Assembly (NCBI GenBank): GCA_030167145.1 | Contig: CP126532.1 | Span: 1,380,001 to 1,412,000, forward strand | Direction: 5' to 3' | DNA length: 32,000 nt | From: Ktedonobacterales bacterium | GTDB taxonomy: Bacteria; Chloroflexota; Ktedonobacteria; Ktedonobacterales; JADMIN01 | Shown here: positions 3,791-32,000 of the stretch, piece after piece | How positions within the stretch are numbered: the first letter of the stretch is position 1 | How the letters are laid out: each line of letters opens with the position of its first letter | Made by a program: the position numbers and the translations under genes | Notes under the pieces: generated by a model | Seen by the model: the letters and a program-made list of their open reading frames with translations, nothing else | Told to the model about the DNA's origin: nothing | Database searches by the model: none

Positions 3791-5428
3791 CTACTTCACG
3801 GCCTTCCAGCCGTCAACCTTCCAGGAAGTACCCTCCTGGATGGCAAAGAACGTCAAGGCAAGGCTTTGGTTGATGGGTATGCCTTGATAGGTTCCGGCAA
3901 TCCGCAAGTCAGTGTCTACGGACGCTTCGCCTGACTGGATTTTGTACGTCGAGAGTCGCGGCTGGCACGTGGTCCATTTCACGCCAGCGGGCATGCCAAA
4001 GTAGTCTAGGGACTCGAATTGGCTCTTCGAGATGTCCTGCTTAATCCCGCTCGAAAGCAGGTTATACGCCGAGTCCAGGTGGTTTGCCTTCAGGTAGCCA
4101 CAGAACTGGTTTATGGTATCCAGCGGCGCCAGATCGGTGCCGAGCAGCGACTGATCAATGCTGCTGATCTTCCAGGAGCCGCCCTCGACATCCAGCGAGA
4201 TGGAGCCAGACTGCGCGCCGCGCGTGGAGCGTGTGACGCTGGCGCCCAACGTGGTGGCAGTGTCGGTGTTGCTGGTGGCGATGGTGGTCAGGTTGCAGGC
4301 GGTGACGGGGCCGTCAACCAGATCCCACAGGCCGGTGGCCGAGGTGAAGAGCGCGGTGCTGCTCTGGCTGGTGAGGGCGCTGCCGAGATAGCTGTACGCG
4401 GAGGTGTAGTTTTTGCTGATCATCGCCGCGCAGAAGCCCTGTACGGTTTGCAGCGAAGTGAGGTTTACGCCCAACAGCGACGTGTCAATGGCGTCAATCT
4501 TCCAGCCGTTCTCGTTTTTCAGGTGCAGCGCGCCGGAGAGGCTGCCCTGCGTGTTGCGGTCAATGACGGCTGAGACAGTCGCGGTGCTGGCGCCGAGGCT
4601 ATACTGGTAGGCGTTGCCGCTGGTGGAGGGCTTGCAGCCGGTGACTTGTCCCTCGGCGGTGTCGAGTACCTGCGAACCTTGCGAGAACTGTTGGTGCGTG
4701 TACTGGCCCTGCATCTTGGCGGTGAGCATGTCATACGCGGCATCGTAGTTCTGGCTCTTGAGGTTAGCGCAGAACTGGATCGCGGCATTGGCTGGCGCGG
4801 ACAACTGCTGGAGCGCGAAGGCGACGCCACCTCCGGAAGCCGCGAGCAATACGGTGACCACAGCGAGGGAGATCCACAGCTTCTTGTGGGATTTCTTCGG
4901 CTGGGCGGGGGCCATCGTCGGGAATCCCTGCGACGGCGCACCCGGCATGCCGTAGGGATACATCGGCATAGAAGGCCCGCCGGGCTGCCCATAGGGATAC
5001 ATCGGCATGGATGGCGCGCCCGGTTGCCCGTAGGGTGGCATGGGCTGCGACGGGTCGGCTGGCACGCCATAGGGATACATCGGCATGGATGGCGCGCCGG
5101 GCTGCCCGTAGGGTGGCATGGGTTGTGAGGGGTCTGCTGGCTGCCCGTAAGGATACATCGGCTGGGAAGGCGGCGTTGCGTAGGGATTCGGTGTCTGCCC
5201 CGGCTCAGTCGCTGGCTGCCCATAGGGATACATCGGCATAGATGGTGCGCCCGGTTGTCCGTAAGGGTACATCGGCGTGGACGGCGCGCCGGGCTGTGGG
5301 TACTGCGGGTACTGCGGGTACTGCGGGTACTGTTGCGATGGATCGCCCTGCGGGGCGTTGGGGTCTGGCGCTTGTGGATCGTTGCCATAAGGTTGGGGCG
5401 ACGACCCCGGCCAGTTGGGGTTTGACAT
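3791..5428 (-). CDS. Single-pass membrane protein with an N-terminal P/Y/Q/G-rich tandem-repeat region and three C-terminal repeats of a roughly 100-aa two-cysteine module
   Basis: GAAGGA RBS 8 nt upstream of the start. MYPYGQPGAPSMP-type repeats occur about 8 times, plus QYPQYPQYPQYP. One TM helix (LWISLAVVTVLLAASGGGVAFAL). Three modules begin FC(A/G)..(K)..NY..AY..L and end GxWKI(D/S).ID.SLLG. The DNA shows matching tandem repeats at 4930-5335. Confidence 0.85.
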   Translation of the reverse strand: MSNPNWPGSSPQPYGNDPQAPDPNAPQGDPSQQYPQYPQYPQYPQPGAPSTPMYPYGQPGAPSMPMYPYGQPATEPGQTPNPYATPPSQPMYPYGQPADPSQPMPPYGQPGAPSMPMYPYGVPADPSQPMPPYGQPGAPSMPMYPYGQPGGPSMPMYPYGMPGAPSQGFPTMAPAQPKKSHKKLWISLAVVTVLLAASGGGVAFALQQLSAPANAAIQFCANLKSQNYDAAYDMLTAKMQGQYTHQQFSQGSQVLDTAEGQVTGCKPSTSGNAYQYSLGASTATVSAVIDRNTQGSLSGALHLKNENGWKIDAIDTSLLGVNLTSLQTVQGFCAAMISKNYTSAYSYLGSALTSQSSTALFTSATGLWDLVDGPVTACNLTTIATSNTDTATTLGASVTRSTRGAQSGSISLDVEGGSWKISSIDQSLLGTDLAPLDTINQFCGYLKANHLDSAYNLLSSGIKQDISKSQFESLDYFGMPAGVKWTTCQPRLSTYKIQSGEASVDTDLRIAGTYQGIPINQSLALTFFAIQEGTSWKVDGWKAVK

Positions 5429-7318: not shown

Positions 7319-7322
7319 GTTG

Positions 7323-11896: not shown

Positions 11897-11917
11897 CATA
11901 GACGGGCGAAGCGATGG

Positions 11918-16055: not shown

Positions 16056-16123
16056 CGCCGTGGCCAGAGCAGCATGTCCGCCACGCTTGACACCGTGCGC
16101 GTCATTACGATACCATGTGCCAT

Positions 16124-16733: not shown

Positions 16734-16820
16734 AGTGTCCGCTTCTGAGGCGGTCGCCTCATCGGATATGAACACGGGATATGGATGCTTGCATGAAAGC
16801 GAGCGAGAAGGATAACGAAG

Positions 16821-17243: not shown

Positions 17244-17276
17244 TCAAACGTAGAGCAGAGACGGGAGAACGTACAG

Positions 17277-17612: not shown

Positions 17613-17667
17613 GCGCCTGCGGTAGGTGAGTAGTGCGTGTGGGCGGTGGCAGAGGAGGGGGTGGGCT

Positions 17668-18096: not shown

Positions 18097-18102
18097 CGCG
18101 AG

Positions 18103-18642: not shown

Positions 18643-18771
18643 GTGTGCCTCCTATGCCTCCTGTGACTCATCTGCTGACTCGCCTGCGTGCCAACTCGCA
18701 ATGCGACGCCGCAGGGCGAGCGAGTCAATGTATCACCCGGCGGCGCGGCAAACGTGGAATCGCGCGTGATG

Positions 18772-19452
18772 TTATTTGCCCAGGCGCATGCGGCGGCTGA
18801 GCCGGGCGAGCATGACGCTGCTGTAGAACGCGAGCACGAACGCGATGATGCTGAGCCAGATGTCTACCTGGCTGAGGATGATGCTGGTGACGTTGACGCC
18901 GCTAGCGAGGAGCAAATAGGCCAACGTGACCAGGGTAAAGACCAGGCTCGCACCGGCCGGGGTACGGCGGTAGAAGCGACGCACGAACTTTTGCAGCCGC
19001 AGAAGCACGGAAACCAGCACGATGGTAATCAGCGCGACGATGAATTCAGTGCCATTCTTTTCGTTGGCAACCTGCGCGAGAAAGAGCAGAACCGACCCCG
19101 CCAGACCGAGCAGCGAGGCGACGATCAGCACGCCAGGCACGGCGGGCAGGCCAGGGCGGATGCGCGCGAGAATGCCCAGGGCGAGCACCGCGCCGATGGC
19201 GAATGGCAGCGCCACGAGCACCGCAGTGTAGATCGAGGCATTCGCGCCGCCAAACTTGCCCAGATTCAGATGGAGCAGCCCGCTATCAACCGTCGTGACC
19301 GATACATTGCCGCTGGTCGCCTTCGTGAGCGCGTCAACCGCGACTTTGATGAGGCCGAGATAGGCGATACCGGCGACAATGCCCCAGGCGATGCTGAGCG
19401 AGGCCATCTTGGCGGCTTCGACTTTGGCATCCGCCTTTTTGTTGATGAACAT
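18772..19452 (-). CDS. Polytopic membrane protein, unknown function
   Basis: About six hydrophobic helices. I prefer the start MFINKK at 19452, which has an AAGGGGG RBS. Confidence 0.7.
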   Translation of the reverse strand: MFINKKADAKVEAAKMASLSIAWGIVAGIAYLGLIKVAVDALTKATSGNVSVTTVDSGLLHLNLGKFGGANASIYTAVLVALPFAIGAVLALGILARIRPGLPAVPGVLIVASLLGLAGSVLLFLAQVANEKNGTEFIVALITIVLVSVLLRLQKFVRRFYRRTPAGASLVFTLVTLAYLLLASGVNVTSIILSQVDIWLSIIAFVLAFYSSVMLARLSRRMRLGK

Positions 19453-19643
19453 GAGACCCCCTTGATGATGCAACTGTCCGCCACACTTCTGGCATCTATA
19501 CTAGCAGGCTTGTCCAGAGGGTAGCTGAGGGAGTTGGGGATGCGGGTCGCGGTCGCCTTGCATACTGGGCATCGCCGCTGGCATAGTGAGGGGTGAGGGG
19601 ACGCGGCGGACGTCCGGTGGAGCACGGGCATCCACCGAACCAC

Positions 19644-19662
19644 GGGCGTCCACCGGACGCCC
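19644..19662. repeat. REP-like palindrome copy b (GGGCGTCC-ACC-GGACGCCC, followed by CTACGG)
   Basis: Identical to copy a over about 24 nt. It is preceded by related GTCCGGTGGA / TCCACCG inverted segments at 19611-19637 and lies just upstream of the RBS of the next gene. Confidence 0.8.
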
Positions 19663-19680
19663 CTACGGAGGAGGTTGCTT

Positions 19681-20118
19681 GTGGCGGAGACGAGCCTGGT
19701 GAAGAAATTGGGCATCAAGCCCGGCGCGACGCTGTTGATCTTGCACGCGCCTGCTGGCTATCTGGAGCGGCTGCGCCCGCTGCCGGAAGGCGCGGAACTG
19801 CGCACGAACGCAACGCCGGGCGAGCGCTACGATTTCGTGCAGGTGTTCGTGGCGAGTATCGCCGAGCTGAATGCATGCGCCGCGAGCGCCATCGCGGCGT
19901 TCAGGCCGAATGGCGGGCAATTGTGGTTTTGCTATCCGAAGAAAACGGGGAAGATCAAGACGGACATCACGCGCGATGTGGGCTGGGAGGCAGTTGGCGC
20001 GGCGGGCTTCCTGGGCGTGACGTTGATCGCGATAGACGAAACATGGTCGTCATTGCGCTTTCGCCCGCGCAGCGAGATCAAGTCGCTGACGCGCAAAGGA
20101 TCTGCGCCGGTTCGGTAA
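19681..20118 (+). CDS. DUF3052-like protein
   Basis: GGAGGAGG RBS at 19667-19674, 6 nt before the GTG at 19681. N-terminal LVKKLGIKPG and central LWFCYPKK motifs resemble DUF3052. Confidence 0.7.
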   Translation: MAETSLVKKLGIKPGATLLILHAPAGYLERLRPLPEGAELRTNATPGERYDFVQVFVASIAELNACAASAIAAFRPNGGQLWFCYPKKTGKIKTDITRDVGWEAVGAAGFLGVTLIAIDETWSSLRFRPRSEIKSLTRKGSAPVR

Positions 20119-20141
20119 TCTAGCGCAGACAGCGCCGCGCG

Positions 20142-20164
20142 AGGGGCGTCCGCCGGACGCCCCT
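20142..20164. repeat. REP-like palindrome copy c (AGGGGCGTCC-GCC-GGACGCCCCT)
   Basis: 10-bp perfect stem between convergent genes (stops at 20118 and 20180). It could double as a bidirectional terminator. Confidence 0.85.
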
Positions 20165-20179
20165 GCGGATAGGGGTGAG

Positions 20180-20791
20180 TTAGCTGGTGGGCGGTGGGGT
20201 GGTGGGCGAAGCGCCAGGGGCAGTCGGTGGCGGGGTGGTGGCGCTGGTGGTGGCGATCATGTCGGGCGTGAGGCGACCAGCATCTGCTTCCTTCATCACG
20301 ACCTTCTCGGACTGCGAGACGACCTCGTTTGGCACCTCATAATGCGTCACCTTGCCGCCGAGCCGCGTCATTTCGGCGGTGAGCGGCAATATCTCATAGT
20401 CGTCGCAGAGCACGGCGAGCGCCGCTTTACCCTGATCGAGTTGCGCGCCAATCTGCTCAATATCTTCTTTCGGCACGCCGATCCGTTTCGTGTCTATGGC
20501 GCCAAAGGCCGCGCCAAGGCCGGCCAGGACGAGTACACCGGGGGCCAGTATCAAACCTGCGATGCCGCCGACCAGCGCGCTCTTCTTCCAATCCTTCACC
20601 CCACTGCGCTCCCAGTGGAGCTTGCCATCAGACCCTTTGTAGATGACGGCCATCGAGCCGAGCTTGATGGATTCTTCAGCTTTATCCCACACATCGAGCG
20701 ATTTCTGGGCTTGCCGAGCAAGGAGCAGGTCGCTGTACAGACCGAGCACCAGTTCCTTGTTTTTGTTTGGCATGCTGCCAGCCATAGTCAT
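20180..20791 (-). CDS. DUF1269-like membrane protein with a Thr/Pro-rich tail
   Basis: AGGAGG RBS before the ATG at 20791. The architecture is a soluble N-domain (LVLGLYSD...), a Gly-zipper TM (LVGGIAGLILAPGVLVLAGLGAAFGAI), then GVPKEDIEQIG...AALAVLCDD...LGGKV, as in DUF1269. Confidence 0.75.
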   Translation of the reverse strand: MTMAGSMPNKNKELVLGLYSDLLLARQAQKSLDVWDKAEESIKLGSMAVIYKGSDGKLHWERSGVKDWKKSALVGGIAGLILAPGVLVLAGLGAAFGAIDTKRIGVPKEDIEQIGAQLDQGKAALAVLCDDYEILPLTAEMTRLGGKVTHYEVPNEVVSQSEKVVMKEADAGRLTPDMIATTSATTPPPTAPGASPTTPPPTS

Positions 20792-20985
20792 ACCTCCTGC
20801 TGTCTGCGCGCGTCTTTGCGCGTGTTTCATGGTTCGCAATGGCCGCCGCAAGGCGTACCAAATGGACACAGCGAGCCGCAGGATGTATGCCAGCGCGGCG
20901 GGTATGAGGGCGCGGCGATGGGCCGGAGAACGGCACAGGCGCAAGGCGTGAGGCGTGTGCGGGGACATTCAGCACGTGGCGCGCG

Positions 20986-21009
20986 GTGCGAAACGTGCGA
21001 AACGTGCGG
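20986..21009. repeat. 9-bp tandem repeat GTGCGAAAC x2.6 in a divergent promoter region
   Basis: Read directly. Confidence 0.85.
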
Positions 21010-21080
21010 ATATACAGCGTTCACGGGCGAGTTATGTGGAGGCTCGCACAGAGCACGCGCAGGTGAGAGGAGCAACGACC

Positions 21081-21428
21081 ATGCGTCTCGGTTTACGCAC
21101 GCTCGGCATGATCTCTGGTCTGGTGGGCACGGGCATCGCGCTTATTCTGGATATACTCTATTCGCTGGCTCATGTGTTAGGGCGCGTCACGAACATCTCC
21201 AACGACACGGGGCATTTGTGGTGGGGGCTGCTCTTCGTGATCGTGGCGCTGGTCGGCTCATTGGCGGGGCTGGTCAATGCGACGGTGGGGGCGTTGCTGC
21301 TGGTGATCGCGGCAATTGCGTTCTTCTTTGTCATCGGCCCATGGGCGCTGCTGACATCGCCGTTCATGCTGTTGGGCGCGGTGCTGATATACGCGGGCCG
21401 TGGCGAGCGGATGCAAGCGACCGCATGA
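21081..21428 (+). CDS. Small membrane protein (3-4 TM), unknown function
   Basis: GAGAGGAG RBS before the ATG at 21081. The sequence is strongly hydrophobic. Confidence 0.6.
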   Translation: MRLGLRTLGMISGLVGTGIALILDILYSLAHVLGRVTNISNDTGHLWWGLLFVIVALVGSLAGLVNATVGALLLVIAAIAFFFVIGPWALLTSPFMLLGAVLIYAGRGERMQATA

Positions 21429-21473
21429 GCGGCGGTATGAGCGGGTGGCATAGCAGCACGCGGGCAGTTCCAA

Positions 21474-21504
21474 CCATAGGGGCGTCCGGTGGACGCCCCT
21501 ATGG
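21474..21504. repeat. REP-like palindrome copy d, the most complete (CCATAGGGGCGTCC-GGT-GGACGCCCCTATGG)
   Basis: 14-bp perfect stem between convergent genes (stops at 21428 and 21542). Confidence 0.9.
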
Positions 21505-21541
21505 AGTGCGGCGGCGGCGCAGGCGGAATGAGGTTGGGTTA

Positions 21542-22087
21542 TTACGCGGACGGCGAAGCGGGCTGCGTTGTGGCGTGCTCGGCTTCGTCATGAAGCGCCG
21601 CCAGCAGCGCTTGCTGGTCCGCATCAGTGATTTCCTGCTCGACGAGCGGGAGGTAAACGCGCTCTTCCTTGGCCAGATGGACGGCGAACAGTCCATGCAG
21701 TTGCAACACCTGGCGCCGGAGTCGGCGTGCCAGTTCGGGCCGCTCGCTCGATGCGACGCTGCCCCAAATGCGCGCGGTCTCCGCGATTTGCCGCGCGTAC
21801 TCGGCAATGTACTCGTGGTCCACATGCATGGTGGCAGTGGGCGAGCCGTGCGCGCGAATCACGGGGTCGAGCGCGGGATAGAGCGTCTCGTCTTCGCCAT
21901 GGGCGTGGGGGAGTAACTCATCGGAGAGAAAACTCGACAGTTTGTTGAGCAGATCGGCCAGCGACGTGGTATCACGGCTCTCAAGACCAGCCTCGACCTC
22001 GTTGGTGTACGTATCCAGTGTCTCGGCCAGAGCGCGATGGTGGGCACGGATGGCGCTGGTCAGTGCCTGGGGCGTTGTGGTGTTCAT
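21542..22087 (-). CDS. Hemerythrin (HHE cation-binding) domain protein
   Basis: His/Glu ligand pattern: IRAHHRAL, LLPHAHGEDETLYP, HVDHEYI, HLAKEERVYLP. I prefer the start MNTTTP at 22087. Confidence 0.8.
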   Translation of the reverse strand: MNTTTPQALTSAIRAHHRALAETLDTYTNEVEAGLESRDTTSLADLLNKLSSFLSDELLPHAHGEDETLYPALDPVIRAHGSPTATMHVDHEYIAEYARQIAETARIWGSVASSERPELARRLRRQVLQLHGLFAVHLAKEERVYLPLVEQEITDADQQALLAALHDEAEHATTQPASPSA

Positions 22088-22313
22088 AGTAAAATCCTCG
22101 ATCCTCTTCCTACTCTCTGCCCTGCGACCTGCGACTCTCACGTGGCTCTATCACAGGGACATGGAGAGTATGGCGCGGCACACAATCACACGACAGCGAC
22201 TTTTCTCATACTGCATCAAAGATGCTGGCGGGCACGATGGTTGCGCGGCTGGCGCTATAATCAGAAGTTGAGATGTGGTGTTGTGTGTTGTAGCCAGCCG
22301 GAGAGGCAATGAT

Positions 22314-22868
22314 ATGGCGCGTATCCGTCCGCGAGACGCTGAGGAAGTGACGAGTGAGGCGCGGGAGATGTTCGCGCGCTTCTATGAGCAGCGGGGCAAT
22401 GTGCCGAATATGTTCCGCACGATGGCGCTCCGCCCGGAGATTGCGACGACGGCAGCGGCGCATATGCGCGCGGTGTTCGCGACGGGAACGGTTGACCCGA
22501 AGCTGAAGGAGATGCTGGCGGTGCGGGTCTCGCAGATCAACACCTGCTACTATTGCATGGCGTCGCACACCGCGATTGCCCGGCAGCTTGGCGTCTCCGA
22601 AGATCTGCTCGACGCGATGTATCACATTGACCAGCATCGCGAGCGCTTTACGCTGGCTGAGCGCGCGGCGCTGACGCTGGCGGAACGCATGACCACGGAC
22701 CCACATGGCGTGGACGAAGAGGTGTGGGTTGAACTACAAGAGCATTTCGACGAAGGGCAGATCATCGAACTGACAGCGGTGATTGGCATCTTCAATTATT
22801 TCAACCGCTTCAACGATGCGCTGCACGTGGATATTACGCCGCCCGCGCGCTCTGGCGCAGACGAGTGA
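22314..22868 (+). CDS. Carboxymuconolactone decarboxylase / AhpD-like family protein (CxxC)
   Basis: GGAGAGG RBS before the ATG at 22314. The motif VSQINTCYYCMASH is typical of the AhpD-like core. Confidence 0.85.
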   Translation: MARIRPRDAEEVTSEAREMFARFYEQRGNVPNMFRTMALRPEIATTAAAHMRAVFATGTVDPKLKEMLAVRVSQINTCYYCMASHTAIARQLGVSEDLLDAMYHIDQHRERFTLAERAALTLAERMTTDPHGVDEEVWVELQEHFDEGQIIELTAVIGIFNYFNRFNDALHVDITPPARSGADE

Positions 22869-23245
22869 AGCGGGTGGAACGAACGGGAGTAGCGGGCAGT
22901 ATGGCAGAGGATGAACTGCAGAGCGGGCAGAGTACAGCGCCTGCGCGGGATGCGGGCGAGACGCCCGAACGGGCAAGGCTGACGGCGCTGCTGGATGATC
23001 TTACCGAGCTGGCGGCGTATCTCGAAGACCGTGGACGCCACACCTATGAGCTGGCGCAGCGCTTTATGGCGAACGCGCAACGCGACGCGAGCGCGCGGGC
23101 CTACGACGAGCGGCAGGCAACGATGTTGGAATACCAGCACTACATCTGGCACGAGATTGCGGGGCGGGTGAAGAAGTTGCTGGTAACCTATGAGGACGAA
23201 GCTGAGACAATGGCAACGACGGCGACGACGGAAAGCGAGGAGTAG
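22865..23245 (+). CDS. Hypothetical acidic, helical protein
   Basis: The GTG start overlaps the upstream TGA (GTGA), which suggests coupling. Codon bias looks coding. I recognise no motif. An alternative ATG lies at 22901. Confidence 0.5.
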   Translation: MKRVERTGVAGSMAEDELQSGQSTAPARDAGETPERARLTALLDDLTELAAYLEDRGRHTYELAQRFMANAQRDASARAYDERQATMLEYQHYIWHEIAGRVKKLLVTYEDEAETMATTATTESEE

Positions 23246-23250
23246 CGCAG

Positions 23251-23598
23251 GTGGCGCGCAATCAGGCGAATAGAGGTTCGGCAGCGCGGAGCAACGCGCG
23301 CAATACTGGCAACACGGGCAGCGCGAACAACGCGCATGACGCGGCACGGCGGGCGGCGCTGCGGCGCTTGCAGATGTTGCGCACAGGCGTGACGGTCTTT
23401 GCGATGTTGGCGGGGTTGGCGTGCTATGCGCTGCTATCGCAGGTGACGGGAAACGAGGCGCTGGCGGTGGTGGCGGGGTTGGTCTTCGCGGTGCTGGTGC
23501 GGATTTCGGCGGGATCGCTGCTCCGCGATGCGCTGGTGCGGACGGTGCGCGAGCGGCAGGCGGGCGATAGGACACCTCAGCAGCAGTCGAAGGAATAG
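23251..23598 (+). CDS. Hypothetical two-TM membrane protein
   Basis: It follows the previous ORF by 5 nt. It has a basic N-terminus and then two hydrophobic helices. Confidence 0.5.
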   Translation: MARNQANRGSAARSNARNTGNTGSANNAHDAARRAALRRLQMLRTGVTVFAMLAGLACYALLSQVTGNEALAVVAGLVFAVLVRISAGSLLRDALVRTVRERQAGDRTPQQQSKE

Positions 23599-23622
23599 GC
23601 CAGGCGTAGGCAGACATTCCTA

Positions 23623-23720
23623 TCCGCCCACGCCTGTCCGCCCACGCCTGTCCGCCTACGCCTGTCCGCCTACGCCTGTCCGCCTACGCCTGTCCGCCTA
23701 CGCCTGTCCGCCTACGCCTG
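23623..23720. repeat. 14-bp tandem repeat TCCGCC(C/T)ACGCCTG x7
   Basis: Read directly: two copies carry C and five carry T at position 7. An inverted partial copy CAGGCGTAGGCAG lies at 23601-23613. The array sits between convergent genes. Confidence 0.95.
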
Positions 23721-23733
23721 CGCAGGTGAAGCG

Positions 23734-25158
23734 TTAGCGGACGTTTCGTGGGTCGGCGTGCTCGCTGTTGTATGCTTCGTATTCTTCGTAGGCGTCGTCG
23801 CCGTCATCGCCGCTCGCGGCGCTCGTGGCGCTGGCGGTGAATTCGTCTTCCAGATACTCGATATAGGCGACATCGCGGACGTACGGGTGGTCGCGCAGCC
23901 CTTCGGCGATCTCGACCTCCTGGCCGGGGGCGACGTGGGCGAGGAAGCCGTGTTTGCGCGGGATCAGCCGCATGGGCCGCGCCTGCCGCTTGACGAGCAA
24001 CGCATGCGCCTGGCCAACGCTGACGCCATTGCGGAAGAAGATGGCGATGCGCCCTGGGCCAAGAAATGGCGCCTGCTGGGCGACGGTGGAACCTTCGATA
24101 CGCCCAACCAGCGCGTGCGCCGCCTGCTCCGCTTGATCGTGCAGGCGCTTGAGTTTGGGCGCGGCGACGGCACGGCTGCGCTCGGTGATGCCGCGTGCGG
24201 TGGCGGTGAGGCGTCCAAAGACATCGCCCAGGCGTGAGGTGGGAGCCGATTCGTAAGCGGGAATAGGGCGGACACCACTGGCGCGGGCTTCGTGCTGGTG
24301 GGCAAGGCCGGTGCGCAGACCAGGCAGCAGATCGCTCCACCACTGGCGCACGAGCTCGGCGACGGGCTTATGGCCGTCGGCGTTGGGGTCGCCGTCCGCG
24401 CGCGCGACGCGCTGGCCGTGCAACCGTTGGAAGCGCTCCATTCGGGGGTTGGGCAGCGCGGCGCGTGGGACGCCGCCTGGGGGCGATCCGGCGGGCATGG
24501 GGCGTCCGTCTGGCGAAGCGAGGCGTGAGCCGACGTAGCCGCGCGGACCAGATTGCGGCGCCGATGGGGACGGCTGCGCGCCCCGTGGGCGCGGCGGTAC
24601 GGGTGGCATGGGCATCGGTCGCCCGCCAGCGTGTGGGCGCGCCGGATCGTGCGGACGCGCGAGGGGTGGGCGCGCAGTGGGCATGGGACGCGGTGTTGCG
24701 TCTGGTCGTTGCGGCCACTCGGCCCAGGCGTCCGGCGTTCCGGGCGTGGCGCGGCGCGGCGAGAGATAGACGGTAGGCTGGTCGGCGATAGCCCACTCGT
24801 CTTCATCCACCTCATCGGCGATGCCGTCGTCCAGGCCATCGTCGTGAGCATGCTCGGTCTGCGTTGGGCGCGGGTTGCTCTCTTGCAACATGTGCTTGGG
24901 AATCGCGACGGCAAGCGTGCTCTTGCGCGGAAGAGTGGGTGGCTGCTCACGGACGATTGGGGCCTGCACGGTGGCGGTCTCATCTGGGCTGTTGGGCGCT
25001 GCCGTGCGCGCAGTTACGTCTGCGGGGGTTACGTCCGCAGGGGTTACGGCCTCCAGTTGGCGCGTCTTGCGAGCGCGCGAGACGGCGGGTTTGGCCCGTG
25101 CCGCCGGAGCCTCGCTAGCGGTGGTCACGGTTGCGTCTGGTTCAGGTTGTGTCGTCAT
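23734..25158 (-). CDS. Proline/arginine-rich, mostly disordered protein with a small folded C-terminal domain (possibly subtilisin-propeptide/I9-like)
   Basis: Coding-like bias is present. The C-terminal segment IAIFFRNGVSVGQAHALLV...HGFLAHVAPGQEVEIAEGLRDHPYVRDVAYIEY has a beta-alpha-beta pattern. The start is uncertain. The track ORF extends to 25518 but that part overlaps iscB. Confidence 0.6.
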   Translation of the reverse strand: MTTQPEPDATVTTASEAPAARAKPAVSRARKTRQLEAVTPADVTPADVTARTAAPNSPDETATVQAPIVREQPPTLPRKSTLAVAIPKHMLQESNPRPTQTEHAHDDGLDDGIADEVDEDEWAIADQPTVYLSPRRATPGTPDAWAEWPQRPDATPRPMPTARPPLARPHDPARPHAGGRPMPMPPVPPRPRGAQPSPSAPQSGPRGYVGSRLASPDGRPMPAGSPPGGVPRAALPNPRMERFQRLHGQRVARADGDPNADGHKPVAELVRQWWSDLLPGLRTGLAHQHEARASGVRPIPAYESAPTSRLGDVFGRLTATARGITERSRAVAAPKLKRLHDQAEQAAHALVGRIEGSTVAQQAPFLGPGRIAIFFRNGVSVGQAHALLVKRQARPMRLIPRKHGFLAHVAPGQEVEIAEGLRDHPYVRDVAYIEYLEDEFTASATSAASGDDGDDAYEEYEAYNSEHADPRNVR

Positions 25159-25186
25159 CTCACGTGCGGCGCGAAGACCCCTGCCT

Positions 25187-26479
25187 TCAGGCGTGGAGAG
25201 GAAGCGCCGCCGCTCCTTTCTGGTAGCGGTAGCCATCCCCCCGATGGAGGGGCTGACAATACCGCACGTGAATGCCCTGAATCGTGCCGGTCGCTGTAGT
25301 GAGATTGCAGGATCCGGTGGCGCGCACCGCCAGCCGTCCCACATACACCCCGGCTTTGGCGCTGCTCGCTGGCACCACAGCTCGTACGATGTCCCCAGTG
25401 CGGAAGTCGCCCACCACGCTGGTGGCTTTGGGGGCTTTGTCCGGGAAGCCGTAGGCGTTGGTGCGGCACATCTGGCGGCTATGCCGTCCGGTCGCCATAA
25501 TCTGAAGCGGCGCCACACCGGCGACCGTCAGGGTGGGCGGCGTGCTGGCACCGACACAGGCGGCATCGAGCCAGTGCGTCTTGGGCAGCCCGCGCTGGGT
25601 GCGGTTCCACTTCGTGCGGCCGCCCGTGCCCACCTCGACGGGTAGCCCGGTCGTCTCCAGGCGACGATACAACGCCCAGCGGGTCGCGTTGACCGCTGCC
25701 GCATCTCGCAATGGCTGTCGGGCCTGCTCGTGGACCTCAGGATAGCCGAACTCAGCGGCAGTTTGCGTGCCCTTGGCGGTGTTGCAGGCTGCGCACGCCA
25801 GCGTGAGGTTGCTCACCTGGTCGCTGCCGCCGCGTGCCTTGGGCATGATGTGCTCGATCTGCAACGGCACGCCGGTGATGCCGCAGTAGGCGCACCGGCG
25901 CTCCCATTTCTCCAAGAGGTATTCCCGCACTTCGTAGCCTGCCAGTTCTCCCTGCTGGTACGCGACGCCGCTGATTTCGGGAGAGACCAACCGCTGGGTG
26001 TCGAACTTGACCAATTCCTGGGCGAGCGCCCCGATGGGCGCGAGACGCCGCAGGCGCGTGACCCAGGTGAGGATATTGGCCAGGCGGCTCTCCAAGGACG
26101 GGGGCAGCCAACCCTCGCGCCGTCTGCGGTTGGCGAAGCGGGCGGGGCGGTAGCGGGTATGGCGCTGCCGTCGCGAGCGGCGGCACATCCGCCGCTGGTC
26201 GAGCCGGTCTTTGACCTGCTGGCCCCGATGGGTCAGTTCCCCAGCCCAGACCACCTGCCCGGTCGCATCGTTGACCACCGCCAGCCCGGTGGTCCGGCTG
26301 CCCGGATCCAGCTTGAGCCGCAGCGGAGGTGGTAGCGCATCGGCTACCGCCCGCTTCAAGATGAGCGTGAACGGGTAGCGATGCCAGACAGCGGCCTTCC
26401 CCTCGGTGAGCAGCCGCCGCGCCCGCGCCGGGTGGCACGGACTGAGCGGCCTGTGCTCGGTGTCTACTACGAAGATCAT
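25187..26479 (-). CDS. iscB: IscB: OMEGA-system RNA-guided endonuclease (PLMP domain, split RuvC, inserted HNH, C-terminal TAM-interaction-like domain)
   Basis: MIFVVDTEHRPLSPCHPARARRLL (PLMP-type N-terminus). LKLDPGSRTTGLAVV (RuvC-I Asp). Arg-rich bridge helix RRMCRRSRRQRHTRYRPARFANRRRR. AQELVKFD (RuvC-II Glu). CAYCG...LQIEHIMPKARGGSDQVSNLTLACAACNTAKG (HNH). THWLDAACVG (RuvC-III His/Asp). Confidence 0.9.
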   Translation of the reverse strand: MIFVVDTEHRPLSPCHPARARRLLTEGKAAVWHRYPFTLILKRAVADALPPPLRLKLDPGSRTTGLAVVNDATGQVVWAGELTHRGQQVKDRLDQRRMCRRSRRQRHTRYRPARFANRRRREGWLPPSLESRLANILTWVTRLRRLAPIGALAQELVKFDTQRLVSPEISGVAYQQGELAGYEVREYLLEKWERRCAYCGITGVPLQIEHIMPKARGGSDQVSNLTLACAACNTAKGTQTAAEFGYPEVHEQARQPLRDAAAVNATRWALYRRLETTGLPVEVGTGGRTKWNRTQRGLPKTHWLDAACVGASTPPTLTVAGVAPLQIMATGRHSRQMCRTNAYGFPDKAPKATSVVGDFRTGDIVRAVVPASSAKAGVYVGRLAVRATGSCNLTTATGTIQGIHVRYCQPLHRGDGYRYQKGAAALPLHA

Positions 26480-26900
26480 AATTGCGTGCCCTTTCGGGTG
26501 TCCCTGGTTGCCCAGGTAATGTTCCCCTCGCCAAGGATAGCCGGCGGTTTCAGGTGACGGCGGCACTGGCTGCAACCCCGTGTGCCTGTTTAACCACCGT
26601 CCGCAGCGCGGGGGACTGAGGTGCCATCCCCCGGTGCCTATGCATTCGCCGATATCGTAGCTCTTTTCAGAACTCAGGCTGGTCAGATCCGGGCTTGCTC
26701 CTCACAAGCCCCCGGCTTCAGCCGTGGGGTATCTGACGGTTGTACCTGCCCTTGTTATGCCAGGCGCGCTGTATAGGCATGGGCGCTGTTGTCGTCCCTG
26801 GATGCGCTGCCAGCACACTATAGGATACCCGCTAGCACACGCTTGTGGGAAACGGGCATATATGACACAAGGCCGCGCTGGCTGCGGATTCACGCCATGT
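26480..26900 (-). ncRNA. Candidate omega-RNA scaffold of the IscB element; the 5' boundary and guide position are not determined
   Basis: About 460 bp of non-coding sequence lies directly 5' of iscB on the same strand. Minus-strand hairpins include CCUGG-GCAA-CCAGG (26503-26516, GNRA loop), a 7-bp stem at 26609-26633, and GGGCUUG-UGAGGAG-CAAGCCC (26691-26711) nested inside GGCUG/CAGCC. The position matches the known IscB/omega-RNA arrangement. Confidence 0.45.
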
Positions 26901-26940
26901 TGCTGGCCGAAAAGTGTCCGGTAGCAGTGGGAAGAAAATA

Positions 26941-28137
26941 CTATGCGCGGGGTGAGAAGGATTGGGGTCTGATGGGCAGATACTCATCAATAAGGCGTGC
27001 GGCATGGCGCGAGATGTCTGGGCGCAGGGCATAGTAGGTCATGCGGTCGCGGTCGTAGAGCGTGACGAAGCCAGCGGCGCGGAGGCGGACCATGTGGTGC
27101 TTGGTGGTGGCTTTGGTCAGCCCAAGCGCGGTGGCAAGCTCGGTGAGATACATCTCGCGGTCGCAGAGCAGCCGCAGGATGCGCAGGCGGGTGCTATCGC
27201 CCAGGGCTTCGAAGAAGCGCAGAATCTCTTCGCTGGGGGCGATGGGGTCGCGCTTGCGCCGTTCCTCTTCAAGGATGGTGGCTTCGATGGGGAGGCAGAA
27301 GGTGAGCGTGCCGTGCCAGAAATGATAATACACGGCGGGGCGACTGAAGTAGCTGGGAGCAAAGATGATGCGCCGGAAGCCAGCCGGGCGCTCCCATTCG
27401 ACGCCGCTCATCGCATATTTGATGAAGCGGTCGGTGGGCATCTCGGCGCGCAGGCGTTCGAGCTTGGCGGCTTCGCGGCGCAGCATCGGCGCGACCTGCT
27501 CTAGCTCAGTGGCGAAGACGGCGTCGTTCCACACATGCAGCGCCGCGACCAGCTCGCTTCGCGCGGCTTCGGGGTCGCGCAGGATGGCCGTGACGACGGG
27601 CTGGGTGTCTGCGGGATAGTGGGCGAGGAGCTGCGGCAGTGCCGCACCAGAGCCATCTGTCGTGGTGGCGGCGCTCTCGACGAGCGCGGCGGTGAGGGCG
27701 TCGCGCCAGGTGTCGCCCAGCCCTTCCTGGTCGAGGAGGGTTTCAAAGAACTGTGCGACGGGCATATCGGCGAGCCAGCCGAGGAAGACGGGGATGTCGT
27801 GCGGCTCTGGGGCCAGCGCAACCAGCGAGATGACGGTGCTGTGCAGCGCGCCAGGGTGTGTGCTGCCGAAATAGCGCTCCAGCGTGTCGAGCGCGGCGCC
27901 GTCCTGTGCGGCGCAGAGGGCGCGGGCGGATTCGATCCATGCACGTCCGATGTCGTAGTCGGTGTAGTCGCGCTCTGGCGAAGCGACGGCCACATGCAGG
28001 CTGAGCAGGAAGTCATAAGCCGGTGAGGCGACGATTTCAACCTCTGGCTGGCGCGGACGTCGCAGGTCAACGGCTCGTGGCGGTGTCTGCCGTACGTCTA
28101 GCTGGGTTCCCCCACGACTTCCATTGCTCTTGTCCAT
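26941..28137 (-). CDS. ArsR-type winged-helix regulator with a large N-terminal domain (DUF5937-like architecture)
   Basis: C-terminal FFEALGDSTRLRILRLLCDREMYLTELATALGLTKATTKHHMVRLRAAGFV is an ArsR/HTH_20 motif, preceded by about 300 aa of an uncharacterised helical domain. I prefer the start MDKSNG at 28137. Confidence 0.8.
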   Translation of the reverse strand: MDKSNGSRGGTQLDVRQTPPRAVDLRRPRQPEVEIVASPAYDFLLSLHVAVASPERDYTDYDIGRAWIESARALCAAQDGAALDTLERYFGSTHPGALHSTVISLVALAPEPHDIPVFLGWLADMPVAQFFETLLDQEGLGDTWRDALTAALVESAATTTDGSGAALPQLLAHYPADTQPVVTAILRDPEAARSELVAALHVWNDAVFATELEQVAPMLRREAAKLERLRAEMPTDRFIKYAMSGVEWERPAGFRRIIFAPSYFSRPAVYYHFWHGTLTFCLPIEATILEEERRKRDPIAPSEEILRFFEALGDSTRLRILRLLCDREMYLTELATALGLTKATTKHHMVRLRAAGFVTLYDRDRMTYYALRPDISRHAARLIDEYLPIRPQSFSPRA

Positions 28138-28203
28138 ATGCTGCCGCTCCACTTCCCCAGGCGCACTCTGCGCCCGCACTGCCACCAACACCCGTCTTGC
28201 CAG

Positions 28204-28228
28204 GACGTTCTACGACGTTCTAACGTTC
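28204..28228. promoter_or_regulatory. Direct repeats GACGTTCTA x2 (10-bp period) plus a third ACGTTC, upstream of the ArsR/DUF5937-like gene
   Basis: GACGTTCTA at 28204-28212 and 28214-22, and ACGTTC at 28223-28. The repeats lie 67-90 nt upstream of the minus-strand start at 28137. Confidence 0.4.
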
Positions 28229-28312
28229 GATACTACTACCTTATGCTCACCATCGTTCGCCGTTCATCATACGTCGCGATGCCTCAACGCGCAATGGCAT
28301 ACATCAGCACGA

Positions 28313-28332
28313 GGCGGACAGGAATGTCCGCC
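28313..28332 (-). terminator. Hairpin GGCGGACA-GGAA-TGTCCGCC downstream of the GH15 gene
   Basis: 8-bp perfect GC-rich stem, 34 nt past the stop at 28366. There is no canonical trailing U-tract on the minus strand. Confidence 0.45.
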
Positions 28333-28365
28333 CTACCAGAGGTCGGCATTGCAAAAAAAGGACTT

Positions 28366-30444
28366 TCATGATGGCGGTTGGGCGCGCAGGATGCCTTCCT
28401 GGGCGCGCTGGAGCGTGACAGCGCAGTTGATGAGGCCGATATGGGTGAACGCCTGGGGGTAGTTGCCAAGCTGTTCGCCGGTGGCGGGGTCCAGTTCTTC
28501 GGAAAAGAGGCCGAGCGGACTGGCGTGGCTGAGCAACATCTCGAAGCGTTCGCGCGCTTCTTCGATACGGCCGAGGTAGCAGAGATTCTCGACCATCCAG
28601 AAGGCGCAGGCCAGAAACGAGCCTTCCGTGCCGGGGAGGCCATCATCGGCGGCGGCGCTAGGCGCGCTGTTTTCGCCATCGCCCGCGCCGTCACTGATCG
28701 TGCGGTAGCGGTAAACGAGCGCGTCCGCGCCGGAGAGCACACGCATCGTCGCGGCGACGGTGCCAGCGGTGCGGGCGTCTTCCCAGTGGAGGAAACCGAC
28801 GAGCGGGATACGCAGGTTCGCGGCGTCCAGTACGGTGGAATCGTAGGATTGCACGAAAGTGTTGAACTGCTCGTTGTAGCCGTGCGCCAGCACATCCGCC
28901 GCGATGGCGACGCGCGAGGCGTGCCAGCGGGCGAGCGCGGCGTGATGGCCGTGTCGCGGAGCCATGCGACAGGCGCGGTCGAGCGCAACCCAGCACATCA
29001 CGCGGGAATAGACGAAGGCGCGGGGGTCGCCGCGCACCTCCCAGATGCCGCGATCCAGGTCGCGCCAGTGCGCGGAAACGTAGTCGGCGACGGTGGCGGA
29101 GAGAGTGCGCATGTCCCGCTGGGGGAGGGAATCGAGACGCATATGGGCATGGGTGGCGTAGGTATAGGCGGCGTCGAGCAGTTCGCCATACACGTCGAGC
29201 TGGCGCTGATGCGCCGCGCCGTTGCCAAGACGGACGGGCCGTGAGCCGCGATAGCCTTCCAGGTGCGCTAGCTCTTGCTCGTCGAGGGCATGATTTGTTT
29301 CGCCGCGAATGCCGTACATGATGCGGATGTCGTCCCCGGACTTGATTTGCAGATCGTGCAGGAAGTGAAAGTAGTCGCGCGCTTCGCCGGTGTAGCCGAG
29401 ACGTCCGAGCGCGCCGAGCGTGAAGGCGGAATCGCGCAGCCAGGTGTAACGATAATCCCAGTTGCGGACGCTGCCGATGGCTTCGGGGAGCGAGGTGGTG
29501 GGCGCGGCGACGATTGCGCCGGTCGGTTCGAAGGTGCAGAGCTTGAGCGCCAGCGCGGAGCGGAGGACCGCGAACTGGTAGGTGCCGGTGTAGTGGCAGG
29601 CCGCGCCCCAGGTGCGCCAGTAGGTGAGCGTTTCATCGAGGTCATGCTGGAAGGGCTGCGCGGCAAGCTGGCGCAACAGATCATCGGCCTCAGCCTGGCT
29701 GCGCGCGTAGTTGAGCTGAGCGATGATGCCGCCGCCCGCGTGTAGGGTCGCGCGGACGCGAAGGACCGAGTTGTTGTCTTCCAGGGCGATGGGTGGCTCG
29801 CCGCGTGTGGAGGGGTGCAGGTAGCGCGCGGTGAAGACGAGATAGCGCTCGCCGTCGGTCAGAATCGCGCCGACCGCATCGTCATTGAGATTGTGCCAGG
29901 TGATGGTGGGCTGGCGGCGCGCGTAGTCGAAGGTGACTTTGAGGACCAATTCAACGGGCACGCTGCCTTCGAGGCAGGTGGCCATCCGTGTGACACGGTG
30001 CGCGGCGGCGACATCGTTGCCAATCTCGCGCTCCAGGCCGGCGTCAAGGCCGTGGGGGATGCCTTGCAGCAGTGCGGGCACGCGTTGCAAGGCGTGCAGG
30101 CTCTTTTGACGCTTGCGAATGGGCATGAAATCGAGCAGGCGCATACGGCCATGCTCGCTGCTGAAGGTCGTTTCGAGGACGTTGGTTTCGGGCAGGTAGG
30201 TCATCGAAGCCTGTGCCTGGTCTGTGGGGCTGATGCGGAAGTAGCCGCCTTTGTCGGCATCGAGCAGGCGCAGAAAGATCGCCGGACTATCGAAATGGGG
30301 GAAGCAGAGCCAGTCAATCGAGCCATTCGGCGCGACCAGCGCGGCGGTGCGGCAGTCGCCGATAGCGCCATACGCGCCGATGGGGTAGTAGCGCGGCTCA
30401 TGGTCTGCCCCAATCTGAGCCTCCACACGTCCTGACGGTCGCAT
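28366..30444 (-). CDS. Glycoside hydrolase family 15 protein (glucoamylase/trehalase-like)
   Basis: N-terminal YPIGAYGAIGDCRTAALVAPNGSIDWLCFPHFDSPAIF and catalytic-domain motifs (WDYRYTWLRDSAF, QLDVYGE, EELD...G..LGNYPQAFTH) are typical of GH15. GAGAGGAGG RBS lies before the ATG at 30444. Confidence 0.9.
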   Translation of the reverse strand: MRPSGRVEAQIGADHEPRYYPIGAYGAIGDCRTAALVAPNGSIDWLCFPHFDSPAIFLRLLDADKGGYFRISPTDQAQASMTYLPETNVLETTFSSEHGRMRLLDFMPIRKRQKSLHALQRVPALLQGIPHGLDAGLEREIGNDVAAAHRVTRMATCLEGSVPVELVLKVTFDYARRQPTITWHNLNDDAVGAILTDGERYLVFTARYLHPSTRGEPPIALEDNNSVLRVRATLHAGGGIIAQLNYARSQAEADDLLRQLAAQPFQHDLDETLTYWRTWGAACHYTGTYQFAVLRSALALKLCTFEPTGAIVAAPTTSLPEAIGSVRNWDYRYTWLRDSAFTLGALGRLGYTGEARDYFHFLHDLQIKSGDDIRIMYGIRGETNHALDEQELAHLEGYRGSRPVRLGNGAAHQRQLDVYGELLDAAYTYATHAHMRLDSLPQRDMRTLSATVADYVSAHWRDLDRGIWEVRGDPRAFVYSRVMCWVALDRACRMAPRHGHHAALARWHASRVAIAADVLAHGYNEQFNTFVQSYDSTVLDAANLRIPLVGFLHWEDARTAGTVAATMRVLSGADALVYRYRTISDGAGDGENSAPSAAADDGLPGTEGSFLACAFWMVENLCYLGRIEEARERFEMLLSHASPLGLFSEELDPATGEQLGNYPQAFTHIGLINCAVTLQRAQEGILRAQPPS

Positions 30445-30491
30445 CCGCACGCCTCCTCTCCACACCGGTTGTGATAGGTATACCATCCCAT

Positions 30492-30510
30492 GGGCGTCCG
30501 TCGAACGCCC
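30492..30510. repeat. Degenerate REP-like palindrome copy e (GGGCGTCC-GTC-GAACGCCC)
   Basis: 6-bp perfect stem plus one mismatch, the same core as the other copies. It lies in a divergent intergenic region. Confidence 0.6.
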
Positions 30511-30671
30511 GTGCAAACAGAATGCGTTTATGCCTGAAGGGCTGCACGCACCCGGCGGTCTTTGCGTGGCGCATATACTATATCGAGTACATACGACTCT
30601 ATGGACAGCATACCGCATCGCGCACCTATCTCATACTGCGAGATTGTCGCGGAGACGAAGGTGGAGACCGA

Positions 30672-31055
30672 GTGAGCATCGTAAGCCGCTATGTTTGGTG
30701 GCCGGGGCATGATGCGGGCGGTTTGCTGCCGCCGGTGGATGTGCTGGCGGGTGTGCTGGCTCCGGCGATGTGGCGTGTGCCGTCTTCGTGGCCGCCGCTG
30801 ACCGCCGATGAGGCGCTGGTGTATGTGCCGCCGCAGTGGATCGGCGATTGGGAGCACGGGCACGCGCTCGCGCCAGGCTACCAGCATGTGTGGCGTGTAG
30901 CGGTGGCGGCGCTGCTGCCGCTGTCGTCCGCGCCACGAACTGCGCCGTATCGGCCCGCGACCCTGCCAGAGACGGCGACGGGGCCACGGCGCATTGGGGT
31001 ATGGAGCCGTGCGCGGCGGAGTCGTGGTGAACGGGGTGGTGATGGTAGTAGGTAA
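30672..31055 (+). CDS. Hypothetical Trp/Pro-rich protein, translationally coupled to the FHA-PrsW gene
   Basis: The GTG at 30672 has a GGTGGAG RBS 5 nt upstream. G/C-ending codon bias is strong. The stop at 31053-55 lies 14 nt inside the next ORF. I recognise no motif. Confidence 0.45.
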   Translation: MSIVSRYVWWPGHDAGGLLPPVDVLAGVLAPAMWRVPSSWPPLTADEALVYVPPQWIGDWEHGHALAPGYQHVWRVAVAALLPLSSAPRTAPYRPATLPETATGPRRIGVWSRARRSRGERGGDGSR

Positions 31056-32000
31056 GCGGTTGCGATTGGGGTGGCGACACGAGTCGTTGCCTACGCTAGA
31101 GGTGCTGGGGACGCCCAGCGTTGCGGTGCTGCGGGCGCGTGAATACGGTATCGGCATCGCCGATAGCGCAGACGTGCGCGGGCTGCGTGGTGGACGGGTG
31201 TTTCTGGCGGGCGGGCGTGTCTTTGCCATCTCTGGTGATGTGGCGACCCTGGGCCGCGACCTAAAGAATAGCGTGGTGCTGCTCGATCCCGCCGTCTCGC
31301 GCGAACACGCGCGGCTGCGACGCATCGCCGGCGGCTGGCTGGTCGAGAATGCGTCGGCGCGCGGGCCGGTCTGGGTGGGTGAGCGGCGGCTCGCGCCCGG
31401 CGAGATGACGGAGATTTTGCCAGGGGAATGGCTGACACTCGGCGACACGCAACTGCAATTCCTCGCGCCGGAGCTACGCGCCAGCGCAGCGGACACACCA
31501 GGTGAAGCGCCAGCGGGCAGCAGCGGGACGCGCGTGCTGGGGCTGGGGATCACGCTGCAATTCGCGCTGCGCGAGAAGCGCGGCGCACGCGCGTGGTGGG
31601 CCTTCGCGCTGGTCGTTCTGGGACTGCTGCTGGCGAGCGCGCTGGTGACGTTGGGCACGGTGGCTCTGGTGGGGCGCGACGCGGCGGCGGCCAGTGGCGT
31701 TGGGCATGTGCTGGCGGCGCTGACGATTCCGCTAGCGCCCGCGCTGGGCGCGCTCCTGTTGGTCGCGGCGTTCGACCGCTACGAGCGCGAGCCGTGGCTG
31801 CTGCTGCTGGGCGCATTCGTGTGGGGCGCGCTGGTGGCTATCCCACCGGCGTTTTTCGTGGAGCATGCGGTGAGCGGGCTGCTGCTGGGGATAGTTCCCA
31901 CTGCGGCGGGACCGCTGCCAGGGTTGGGCGCGGCGGCGGCGCAGGCGCTGAGCGCGGGCCTGACGGAAGAAGTGACCAAGGGCGCTGGGCTGCTGCTGCT
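31042..32000 (+). CDS. FHA domain fused to a PrsW-family intramembrane protease (3' end outside the window)
   Basis: Hand-translated frame (absent from the track because it is open-ended). FHA: LGRDLKNSVVLLDPAVSREHARLRRIAGGWLVENASARGPVWVGERRL...LGDTQLQF. Then TM helices carrying the PrsW motifs FDRYEREP and LTEEVTKGAGLLLL (EExxK). No stop occurs up to 32000. Confidence 0.75.
   Translation, partial: MVVGKRLRLGWRHESLPTLEVLGTPSVAVLRAREYGIGIADSADVRGLRGGRVFLAGGRVFAISGDVATLGRDLKNSVVLLDPAVSREHARLRRIAGGWLVENASARGPVWVGERRLAPGEMTEILPGEWLTLGDTQLQFLAPELRASAADTPGEAPAGSSGTRVLGLGITLQFALREKRGARAWWAFALVVLGLLLASALVTLGTVALVGRDAAAASGVGHVLAALTIPLAPALGALLLVAAFDRYEREPWLLLLGAFVWGALVAIPPAFFVEHAVSGLLLGIVPTAAGPLPGLGAAAAQALSAGLTEEVTKGAGLLL

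Follow-up and report, generated by a model that had tools for sequence, protein, structure and literature searches.

A probable non-autonomous ISC2-type transposon with an intact IscB and its omegaRNA at a start codon in a Ktedonobacterales genome

Transposons of the ISC group have hairpins at their termini, and their target sites were given as N/ATGA, GT/GG and GT/RA, and also as GT/GR (the slash marks the insertion point; Kapitonov 2016, PMC4810608). The omegaRNA of IscB is the RNA family known as HEARO; its scaffold lies in the transposon's right end and its guide outside the element, IscB and the transposase TnpA share a target-adjacent motif (TAM), and most IscB genes have no TnpA nearby (Meers 2023, 10.1101/2023.03.14.532601). 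The catalytic RuvC and HNH residues of OgeuIscB were named as D61/E193/H247/H340/D343 (Kato 2022, PMC9640706). Here we consider a stretch of 32,000 nt from a Ktedonobacterales bacterium (contig CP126532.1, positions 1,380,001 to 1,412,000 of the forward strand), called the window below. Its segment 25159-26737 is, in our assessment, very probably a 1,579-bp non-autonomous transposon of the IS200/IS605 superfamily, of ISC2 type, which carries an intact IscB with its omegaRNA and is inserted at N/ATGA. The element is an ordinary but complete addition to a thoroughly known family; its exact protein has already been deposited under a generic name.

The protein-coding gene of the element is as follows:

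25187..26479, minus strand: iscB coding sequence, 430 aa (basis: list of open reading frames (ORFs), Pfam, NCBIfam and structure alignments)

The initial annotation of this DNA had described an uninterrupted 430-aa ORF at 25187-26479. The coordinates proved exact; the strand, which was omitted there, is minus. The ORF starts with ATG at 26479-26477, ends with TGA at 25189-25187 and contains no internal stops. All motifs reported earlier were recovered in the order claimed: LDPGS at residue 57, QELVKFD at 154, CAYC at 196, EHIMP at 209, CAAC at 229 and HWLDAA at 302; the N-terminal motif, at residue 11, had to be corrected from PLMP to the variant PLSP, in which P11, L12 and P14 (motif residues 11-14) are conserved in a 45-sequence alignment. 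A longer, 462-aa version of iscB with a TTG start (to 26575) was ruled out, as relatives begin at MxFVVD and the extension falls inside the omegaRNA.

A profile search, proposed earlier as a check on the IscB assignment, upheld it. Pfam RRXRR matched over its whole profile (E=1.2e-68, residues 2-177); Pfam HNH matched residues 196-238, between RuvC-II and RuvC-III, the complete HNH insertion spanning ~196-245; and the guided_IscB equivalog of NCBIfam, NF040563, scored 446.8 bits against a cutoff of 175 (E=3.7e-134). In the printed 7XHT alignments, RuvC residues D58/E155/H302/D305 and HNH residue H210 align to D61/E193/H340/D343 and H247 of OgeuIscB; thus the RuvC D/E/H/D set and the HNH histidine are all kept. 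The same five residues are invariant across the 45-sequence alignment (down to 45% identity), and the zinc cysteines form two CxxC pairs, 196/199 and 229/232. Substituted catalytic residues, or a closest homology to a plain HNH or group II intron-type protein, had been named as grounds for giving up the assignment; the residues are unsubstituted, and the top homology is to IscB.

The nearest solved structures by sequence are the IscB-omegaRNA complexes of TbaIscB, OgeuIscB and HfmIscB. We also built an AlphaFold2 model from 44 homologues at 71-79% identity; in a fold search with this low-confidence model IscB complexes ranked first, with low TM-scores of ~0.3. Residues 345-430 (approximately the last 90) are conserved in the family, as seen in the 45-sequence alignment, and DSSP assigned strands at residues 364-421 of the model, a region of low confidence (predicted local distance difference test, pLDDT, <50); this agrees, if weakly, with the beta-rich C-terminal domain named in the initial annotation. 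The ratio of non-synonymous to synonymous substitution rates (dN/dS) was 0.13-0.15 in comparison with three relatives (71-77% identity), with dS near saturation, which shows long-term constraint. Three lines of evidence concur, namely the profile searches, the alignment with IscB structures that have been solved and the cognate omegaRNA; the product of 25187-26479 is, as judged from its sequence, an intact IscB, and, by analogy, it may be an active programmable nuclease.

In NCBI and JGI the iscB product goes by the names ‘HNH endonuclease’ and ‘5-methylcytosine-specific restriction endonuclease McrA’, as do most of its relatives. Just a few relatives carry the IscB label, which indicates systematic under-annotation. 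The protein comes from a Ktedonobacterales genome in a JGI metagenome, on a 5.07-Mb contig (3300045419, Ga0494333_323).

Directly upstream of iscB we observed the RNA component:

26480..26737, minus strand: omegaRNA scaffold, consisting of the HEARO match (26516-26737), an extra hairpin CUGGGCAACCAG (26504-26515) and, from there to the start codon of iscB, a tail

The Rfam model HEARO, RF02033, matched in its whole length (1-211) and on the strand of iscB, with 137.5 bits (E=9e-29), the gathering score being 83; the match stops 36 nt before the iscB ATG. HEARO occupies the equivalent place in 19 of the 20 related loci scanned, and the score in the window is above that of most Ktedonobacter racemifer copies. 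Compensatory changes were found in 35 of 60 predicted omegaRNA pairs in an 11-sequence alignment. The extra 3′ hairpin covaries too (three of its four pairs are compensatory), in agreement with the statement by Meers 2023 (10.1101/2023.03.14.532601) that RF02033 lacks downstream elements.

The ends of the element are defined by these features:

26709..26729, plus strand: subterminal imperfect hairpin at the omegaRNA-bearing end (conventional right end), CCCCCGGCTTCAGCCGTGGGG
25178..25198, plus strand: subterminal imperfect hairpin at the other end (conventional left end), CCCCTGCCTTCAGGCGTGGAG, overlapping the iscB stop codon
25159..25177, minus strand: terminal segment of the element, from hairpin to junction, ending ...TCTTCGCGCCGCACGTGAG (basis: the edge in relatives and three unoccupied loci)

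In an upstream alignment of the window with 19 related loci, conservation has its edge exactly at GTCAG (26737); sequences 5′ of it differ even among near-identical K. racemifer paralogues. Downstream, conservation passes through the stop-codon hairpin and ceases just before ATGR in relatives. The termini of the element, with the adjoining target, read GTCA...(GAG)/ATGA. The hairpin at 26709-26729 has a DNA fold of -8.2 kcal/mol (z=-1.7), and all relatives possess a hairpin of the same type; the one at 25178-25198 folds weakly by itself, its placement being conserved in relatives. Of their 21 positions, 16 are identical, GGC and GCC being swapped in the stem, and such mutual likeness is as expected for IS200/IS605 subterminal palindromes. 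A search for direct and inverted repeats within the element produced short, chance-level matches only.

The insertion point could be compared with loci lacking the element, which we located via orthologues of the downstream host protein. The relevant features of the window are:

25155..25158, minus strand: target site and predicted TAM, ATGA; host DNA, with the ATG that starts the downstream gene
26738..26753, minus strand: predicted guide segment, 16 nt, 5′-AAGGGCAGGUACAACC-3′; host DNA just beyond the element
23734..25158, minus strand: downstream host gene, conserved hypothetical, 474 aa (MTTQPEP...), co-oriented, its start 28 nt past the iscB stop
26941..28137, minus strand: upstream host gene, ArsR-type HTH_5/HTH_20 regulator, 398 aa as called, co-oriented with iscB

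Three unoccupied Ktedonobacterales loci (L081, L082 and L083) have the same arrangement: a gene for an ArsR-type HTH protein, a spacer (196, 204 and 204 bp, respectively), then the downstream gene. The spacer of the window, 26738-26940, has 203 bp, which matches this range. The HTH protein of L081 is 64% identical to that of the window, and in both places a GH15 gene precedes the HTH gene. IscB was not found in any of the three loci, nor HEARO in L081. In each of them an SD-like (Shine-Dalgarno-like) sequence is followed, after 5-7 nt, by ATGACGAC; in the window the order is ...AAGGGCAGGTACAACC, the element, then ATGACGAC..., with a single ATGA at the insertion and, hence, no target duplication. 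As the unoccupied loci are orthologues from other strains (~50-64% protein identity), the junction is precise to ~2 nt. We fixed it at N/ATGA because all three loci carry ATG there, which favours N/ATGA over GT/GA. The element was thus inserted immediately 5′ of ATGA, where it parts the start codon of the downstream gene from the ribosome-binding region, and it was so in this lineage only. Scans of metagenome contigs for the two flanks spaced by 0-8 nt, and for just the right flank, gave no match, the second of them missing even the sequence of the window; as the lineage is absent from that collection, both negatives are uninformative.

The predicted TAM is ATGA. Since the element boundary and the unoccupied loci place the insertion at N/ATGA, the predicted natural guide is AAGGGCAGGUACAACC, with the length of 16 nt adopted from Kato 2022 (PMC9640706). 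This segment is the 3′ end of the 5′ untranslated region (5′UTR) of the downstream host gene and holds the Shine-Dalgarno-like AAGGGCAGG. The insertion has left 1.58 kb between the ribosome-binding region of the host gene and its ATG; the bases before this ATG are now ...CGCACGTGAG.

How might such an element operate? For transcription, RNA processing, TAM, cleavage and mobility we reason by analogy with Meers 2023 (10.1101/2023.03.14.532601), Kapitonov 2016 (PMC4810608) and the IscB structures. Transcription from the host spacer or from the co-oriented upstream gene would run through the guide (the last 16 nt of the host 5′UTR), the scaffold and iscB, and probably on through the host gene; the spacer 26738-26940 is the likely source of omegaRNA transcription. 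No terminator-like site was found inside the element or between the iscB stop and the host gene. IscB would bind the processed omegaRNA, and the complex would recognize AAGGGCAGGTACAACC followed by the TAM ATGA, a sequence expected to arise solely at the ‘empty’ site, after excision by a TnpA acting in trans. Both strands would be cut there, the target strand by HNH and the non-target strand by RuvC, and the element would be restored via recombination with a sister copy. The element would not cut itself, since the guide match at the occupied site is followed by GTCAG, not by ATGA.

Several points weigh against this picture of a complete element, mobile at present and with a defined TAM. Transposases of any kind, Y1 TnpA included, were not found in the 32-kb window (Pfam annotation of called genes in 15187-32000 plus ORF scans of 1-15263). 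Furthermore, there is no sign of recent copying of iscB, because the 90%-identity cluster of its protein has one member sequence in the collection searched and the nearest other protein is only 78% identical; the identical IscB seen on two contigs is one and the same locus. The TAM derives from the inferred junction, and the alternative cut positions GT/GA (Kapitonov 2016, PMC4810608) would move both boundaries by 2 nt. For the TAM-interacting domain, the AlphaFold model is weak (pLDDT 59.9 overall, <50 beyond residue 284); the structure-profile alignment stops at about residue 345, with no significant sequence link of the C-terminus to a solved TAM-interacting domain, and the sole C-terminal match (TbaIscB 959-1020) is non-significant. 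A promoter scan, which may not suit the phylum of Ktedonobacterales, detected no sigma-70-like site in the host spacer. Its lone match, 26504-26475, reaches from the last part of the omegaRNA tail into the beginning of iscB, and it was given no weight.

What other explanations could be offered for this locus? Source annotations speak of a plain HNH or McrA-type restriction endonuclease, and one could also think of a group II intron-type HNH protein; McrA structures did appear in the fold search, as weak matches to the HNH part only. However, this HNH interrupts a split RuvC in which no catalytic residue is missing, RRXRR is matched in full length together with the IscB equivalog, a HEARO RNA is located upstream, and neither a reverse transcriptase (RT) domain nor an intron RNA was found in the window; the Pfam, HEARO, NCBIfam and structure matches refute this reading, to which we assign a negligible probability. 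The prospects of a type II CRISPR-Cas remnant with a miniature Cas9 are just as slim. Compact Cas9 structures rank under IscB in the fold search, and Cas9d and Cas9 models gave weak matches over the HNH region only, with scores (47 versus a cutoff of 375, and 21 versus a cutoff of 100) that lie far below acceptance; the protein has 430 aa and no REC lobe, no CRISPR array was found in the window (tandem-repeat search, Rfam), cas1 and cas2 were not among the neighbours, and transposon ends are present. This reading, too, is refuted by the sub-cutoff scores, the array and cas genes not being found, and the transposon ends.

A stranded relic deserves more attention, as it disputes the current use of the element and not its identity. 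Here an intact element would be immobile for want of TnpA, its nuclease would have no substrate, and the copy would persist until mutations accumulate. We consider it possible, though rather unlikely. A TnpA was not found in the window, its absence near most IscB genes is on record (Meers 2023, 10.1101/2023.03.14.532601), and the protein forms a single-member cluster with the closest relative at 78% identity; on the other hand, ORF, catalytic residues, omegaRNA and both ends are all intact, and a TnpA located elsewhere and acting in trans is normal for the family (Kapitonov 2016, PMC4810608; Meers 2023, 10.1101/2023.03.14.532601). One could also speculate that the element has been domesticated, so that IscB with its RNA, or the inserted DNA alone, serves the host, e.g. 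by controlling expression of the 474-aa gene. The SD-like sequence is indeed split from the start codon, the host gene begins 28 nt past the iscB stop with no terminator-like site between, and half of the related elements are located at the beginning of a gene. Nuclease-dead domesticated relatives are known, namely TnpB-derived repressors; unlike in these, the catalytic residues here are intact. As the insertion is missing from three related genomes, it is recent and lineage-specific, and the pattern is explained more simply by selection for host-promoter capture; domestication is improbable. A complete ISC2-type transposon with a potentially active IscB is the reading we prefer.

A start codon at the junction is not unique to this transposon: the same was noticed in related loci L003-L037 and L076, with the junction ~0-60 nt past the iscB stop. 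The figures come from 28 non-redundant loci of Ktedonobacteria type, a hand-curated sample from few genomes. In 14 of these 28 loci an ORF of 100 codons or more begins with the terminal ATGR, as compared with 18.9% of 2,536 control ATGR sites in the flanks (binomial p=2e-4); ORFs of 75 codons or more begin there in 17 loci. Of ten products tested that are read from the junction ATG, nine have a Pfam domain matched from profile position 1, within 3-35 residues of the ATG (GNAT, DeoR, HIT, altronate dehydratase, PadR, DUF951, two protein kinases and AraC), and are thus complete genes starting at the junction. In addition, an SD-like tetramer is present in the 16-nt guide flank of 16 out of 24 loci, versus 16% of control 16-mers (p=4e-8).

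We tentatively propose that ISC2-type elements of Ktedonobacteria with ATGR prefer, or are preferentially retained at, the point where the Shine-Dalgarno region of a co-oriented host gene gives way to its start codon, the window being one clean example, with three unoccupied orthologous loci; with its small sample, the pattern is a lead. If the proposal is true, the TAM would be the start codon itself and the natural guides would be ribosome-binding regions; the element would hijack a host promoter for its guide RNA and come to share an operon with the host gene. The pattern extends the orientation bias with regard to upstream genes reported by Meers 2023 (10.1101/2023.03.14.532601). The pattern was not found in Kapitonov 2016 (PMC4810608) or in full-text searches with partial coverage of the literature.

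Some of the related loci show features worth recording. At L022 (K. racemifer NZ_ADVG01000001.1, 302666-309949) the 3′ junction, at ~4340-4350, reads ...TTGTG/ATAAATAC. ATAAA is the TAM of K. racemifer IscB-1 according to a commentary; the junction fits the rule that the sequence right after the element is the TAM, and L022 may be the characterized IscB-1. L020 (Ktedonobacter sp. SOSP1-85) has a second full-length HEARO at 5290-5532 (138.7 bits), ~1 kb downstream of the IscB gene, which is a separate element close by or else an omegaRNA on its own. Rfam matches to group II introns (domain V/VI) at L014 (1659-1735) and L021 (6788-6876), located 1.3-2.5 kb from K. racemifer IscB elements, are unrelated mobile elements. 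At L003, the closest relative in the genome collection (76% identity), the junction ATG (~4326-4570) opens a response-regulator-like N-terminus (…TILVVEDDDALR…); this frame stops after 80 codons without a Pfam match, a frameshift or pseudogene in the metagenome-assembled genome being possible.

With respect to the host genes, the 474-aa protein has no Pfam domain. Its homologues have 420-550 aa, align to as much as 93% of the ORF and share a conserved N-terminus, M-T-T/N-Q; the gene is, judging by these matches, conserved across Ktedonobacterales. Public calls of this gene are too short, 235 aa in JGI and 254 aa in Logan. A 594-aa ORF at 23734..25518, overlapping the 3′ end of iscB, was dismissed, as it extends the 474-aa gene upstream of a start, MTTQ, that is conserved. 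Directly 3′ of the stop codon of the 474-aa gene, at 23619-23720, there is a perfect-looking tandem repeat of 14 bp in 7.3 copies (CCTGTCCGCCTACG, 97% matches).

The absence of TnpA nearby, stated in the initial annotation, was borne out by the Pfam annotation and ORF scans across the window. To call the IscB ‘solo’ is correct as far as the missing TnpA is concerned; however, the gene sits in a transposon that has an omegaRNA gene and both ends. The window had also been described as otherwise housekeeping, and its annotated genes indeed hold no other mobile gene: the neighbours encode an ABATE/zf-CGNR regulator, an alpha/beta hydrolase, an MFS transporter, AAA ATPases including FtsH, a DoxX protein, an aldehyde dehydrogenase, a PucR regulator, a GH15 glucoamylase, an FHA/PrsW protein and others. 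Elsewhere in the window, nested tandem repeats of 39, 78 and 117 bp (4944-5268, 70-76% matches) lie within a 545-aa ORF (3791..5428); with weak matches to DUF3887 and NTF2-like families, its product is probably a repeat-containing protein.

As an IscB, the protein adds little, since thousands of relatives exist. The practical value of the locus lies in a compact 430-aa, apparently intact orthologue for which the natural guide, the scaffold, the predicted TAM ATGA and the natural target (the empty site) are all specified. Should the start-codon pattern be general, it would explain how IscB elements obtain outside transcription for the guide, and it would mean that these transposons systematically rewire translation initiation of host genes.

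Among known systems, the best match is ISC2 of K. racemifer (ISC2-1_KR and relatives; Kapitonov 2016, PMC4810608). IscB is the only protein in both; the size is 1,579 bp here and 1,341-1,707 bp there; and the termini are alike, 5′-GTCA...ATGR-3′ (5′-GTCA...ATGG-3′ in that paper), with subterminal imperfect hairpins. Also shared are the lack of target duplication, the lack of TnpA in cis and a 4-nt target with ATGA or GTGR. The differences are (i) an identity of 57-62% between the IscB of the window and the K. racemifer copies; (ii) the site, N/ATGA being supported here by unoccupied orthologues whereas GT/GG was reported for ISC2-1_KR; and (iii) copy number, a single copy as far as seen here (in the window and 21 kb of the contig) versus dozens in K. 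racemifer.

Elements of Geobacillus stearothermophilus with IscB and TnpB (Meers 2023, 10.1101/2023.03.14.532601) follow the logic that we assume for our element: a right-end scaffold, a guide derived from the flank, outside transcription, a co-oriented upstream gene, a TAM shared by TnpA and nuclease, and cleavage of the excised donor joint. There, however, the TAM is AT-rich, of TTCAT type, and TnpA is identified; here the predicted TAM is ATGA, and no TnpA is known.

OgeuIscB with its omegaRNA (7UTN, 7XHT, 8CSZ; Kato 2022, PMC9640706), the top fold match, has the same domain order and catalytic residues, as well as a guide at the 5′ end of a structured RNA of ~200 nt. In comparison with it, our protein is shorter (430 versus 496 aa) and 22% identical over the 8CSZ structural alignment; the C-terminal TAM-interacting region is unalignable by sequence, and we expect ATGA as the TAM in place of NNRR. 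As in Cas9, the element has an HNH placed within a split RuvC and a bridge helix rich in arginine, and it would, like Cas9, cut double-stranded DNA beside a 3′ motif under RNA guidance; unlike Cas9, it has no REC lobe, CRISPR array, tracrRNA/crRNA pair or cas1/cas2, is transposon-encoded and has its guide set by the insertion site. Finally, IsrB (8DMB) resembles it in the PLMP/RuvC/bridge-helix core and in the type of omegaRNA; IsrB has no HNH, whereas the complete HNH of the window's IscB predicts that it should cut both strands rather than nick.

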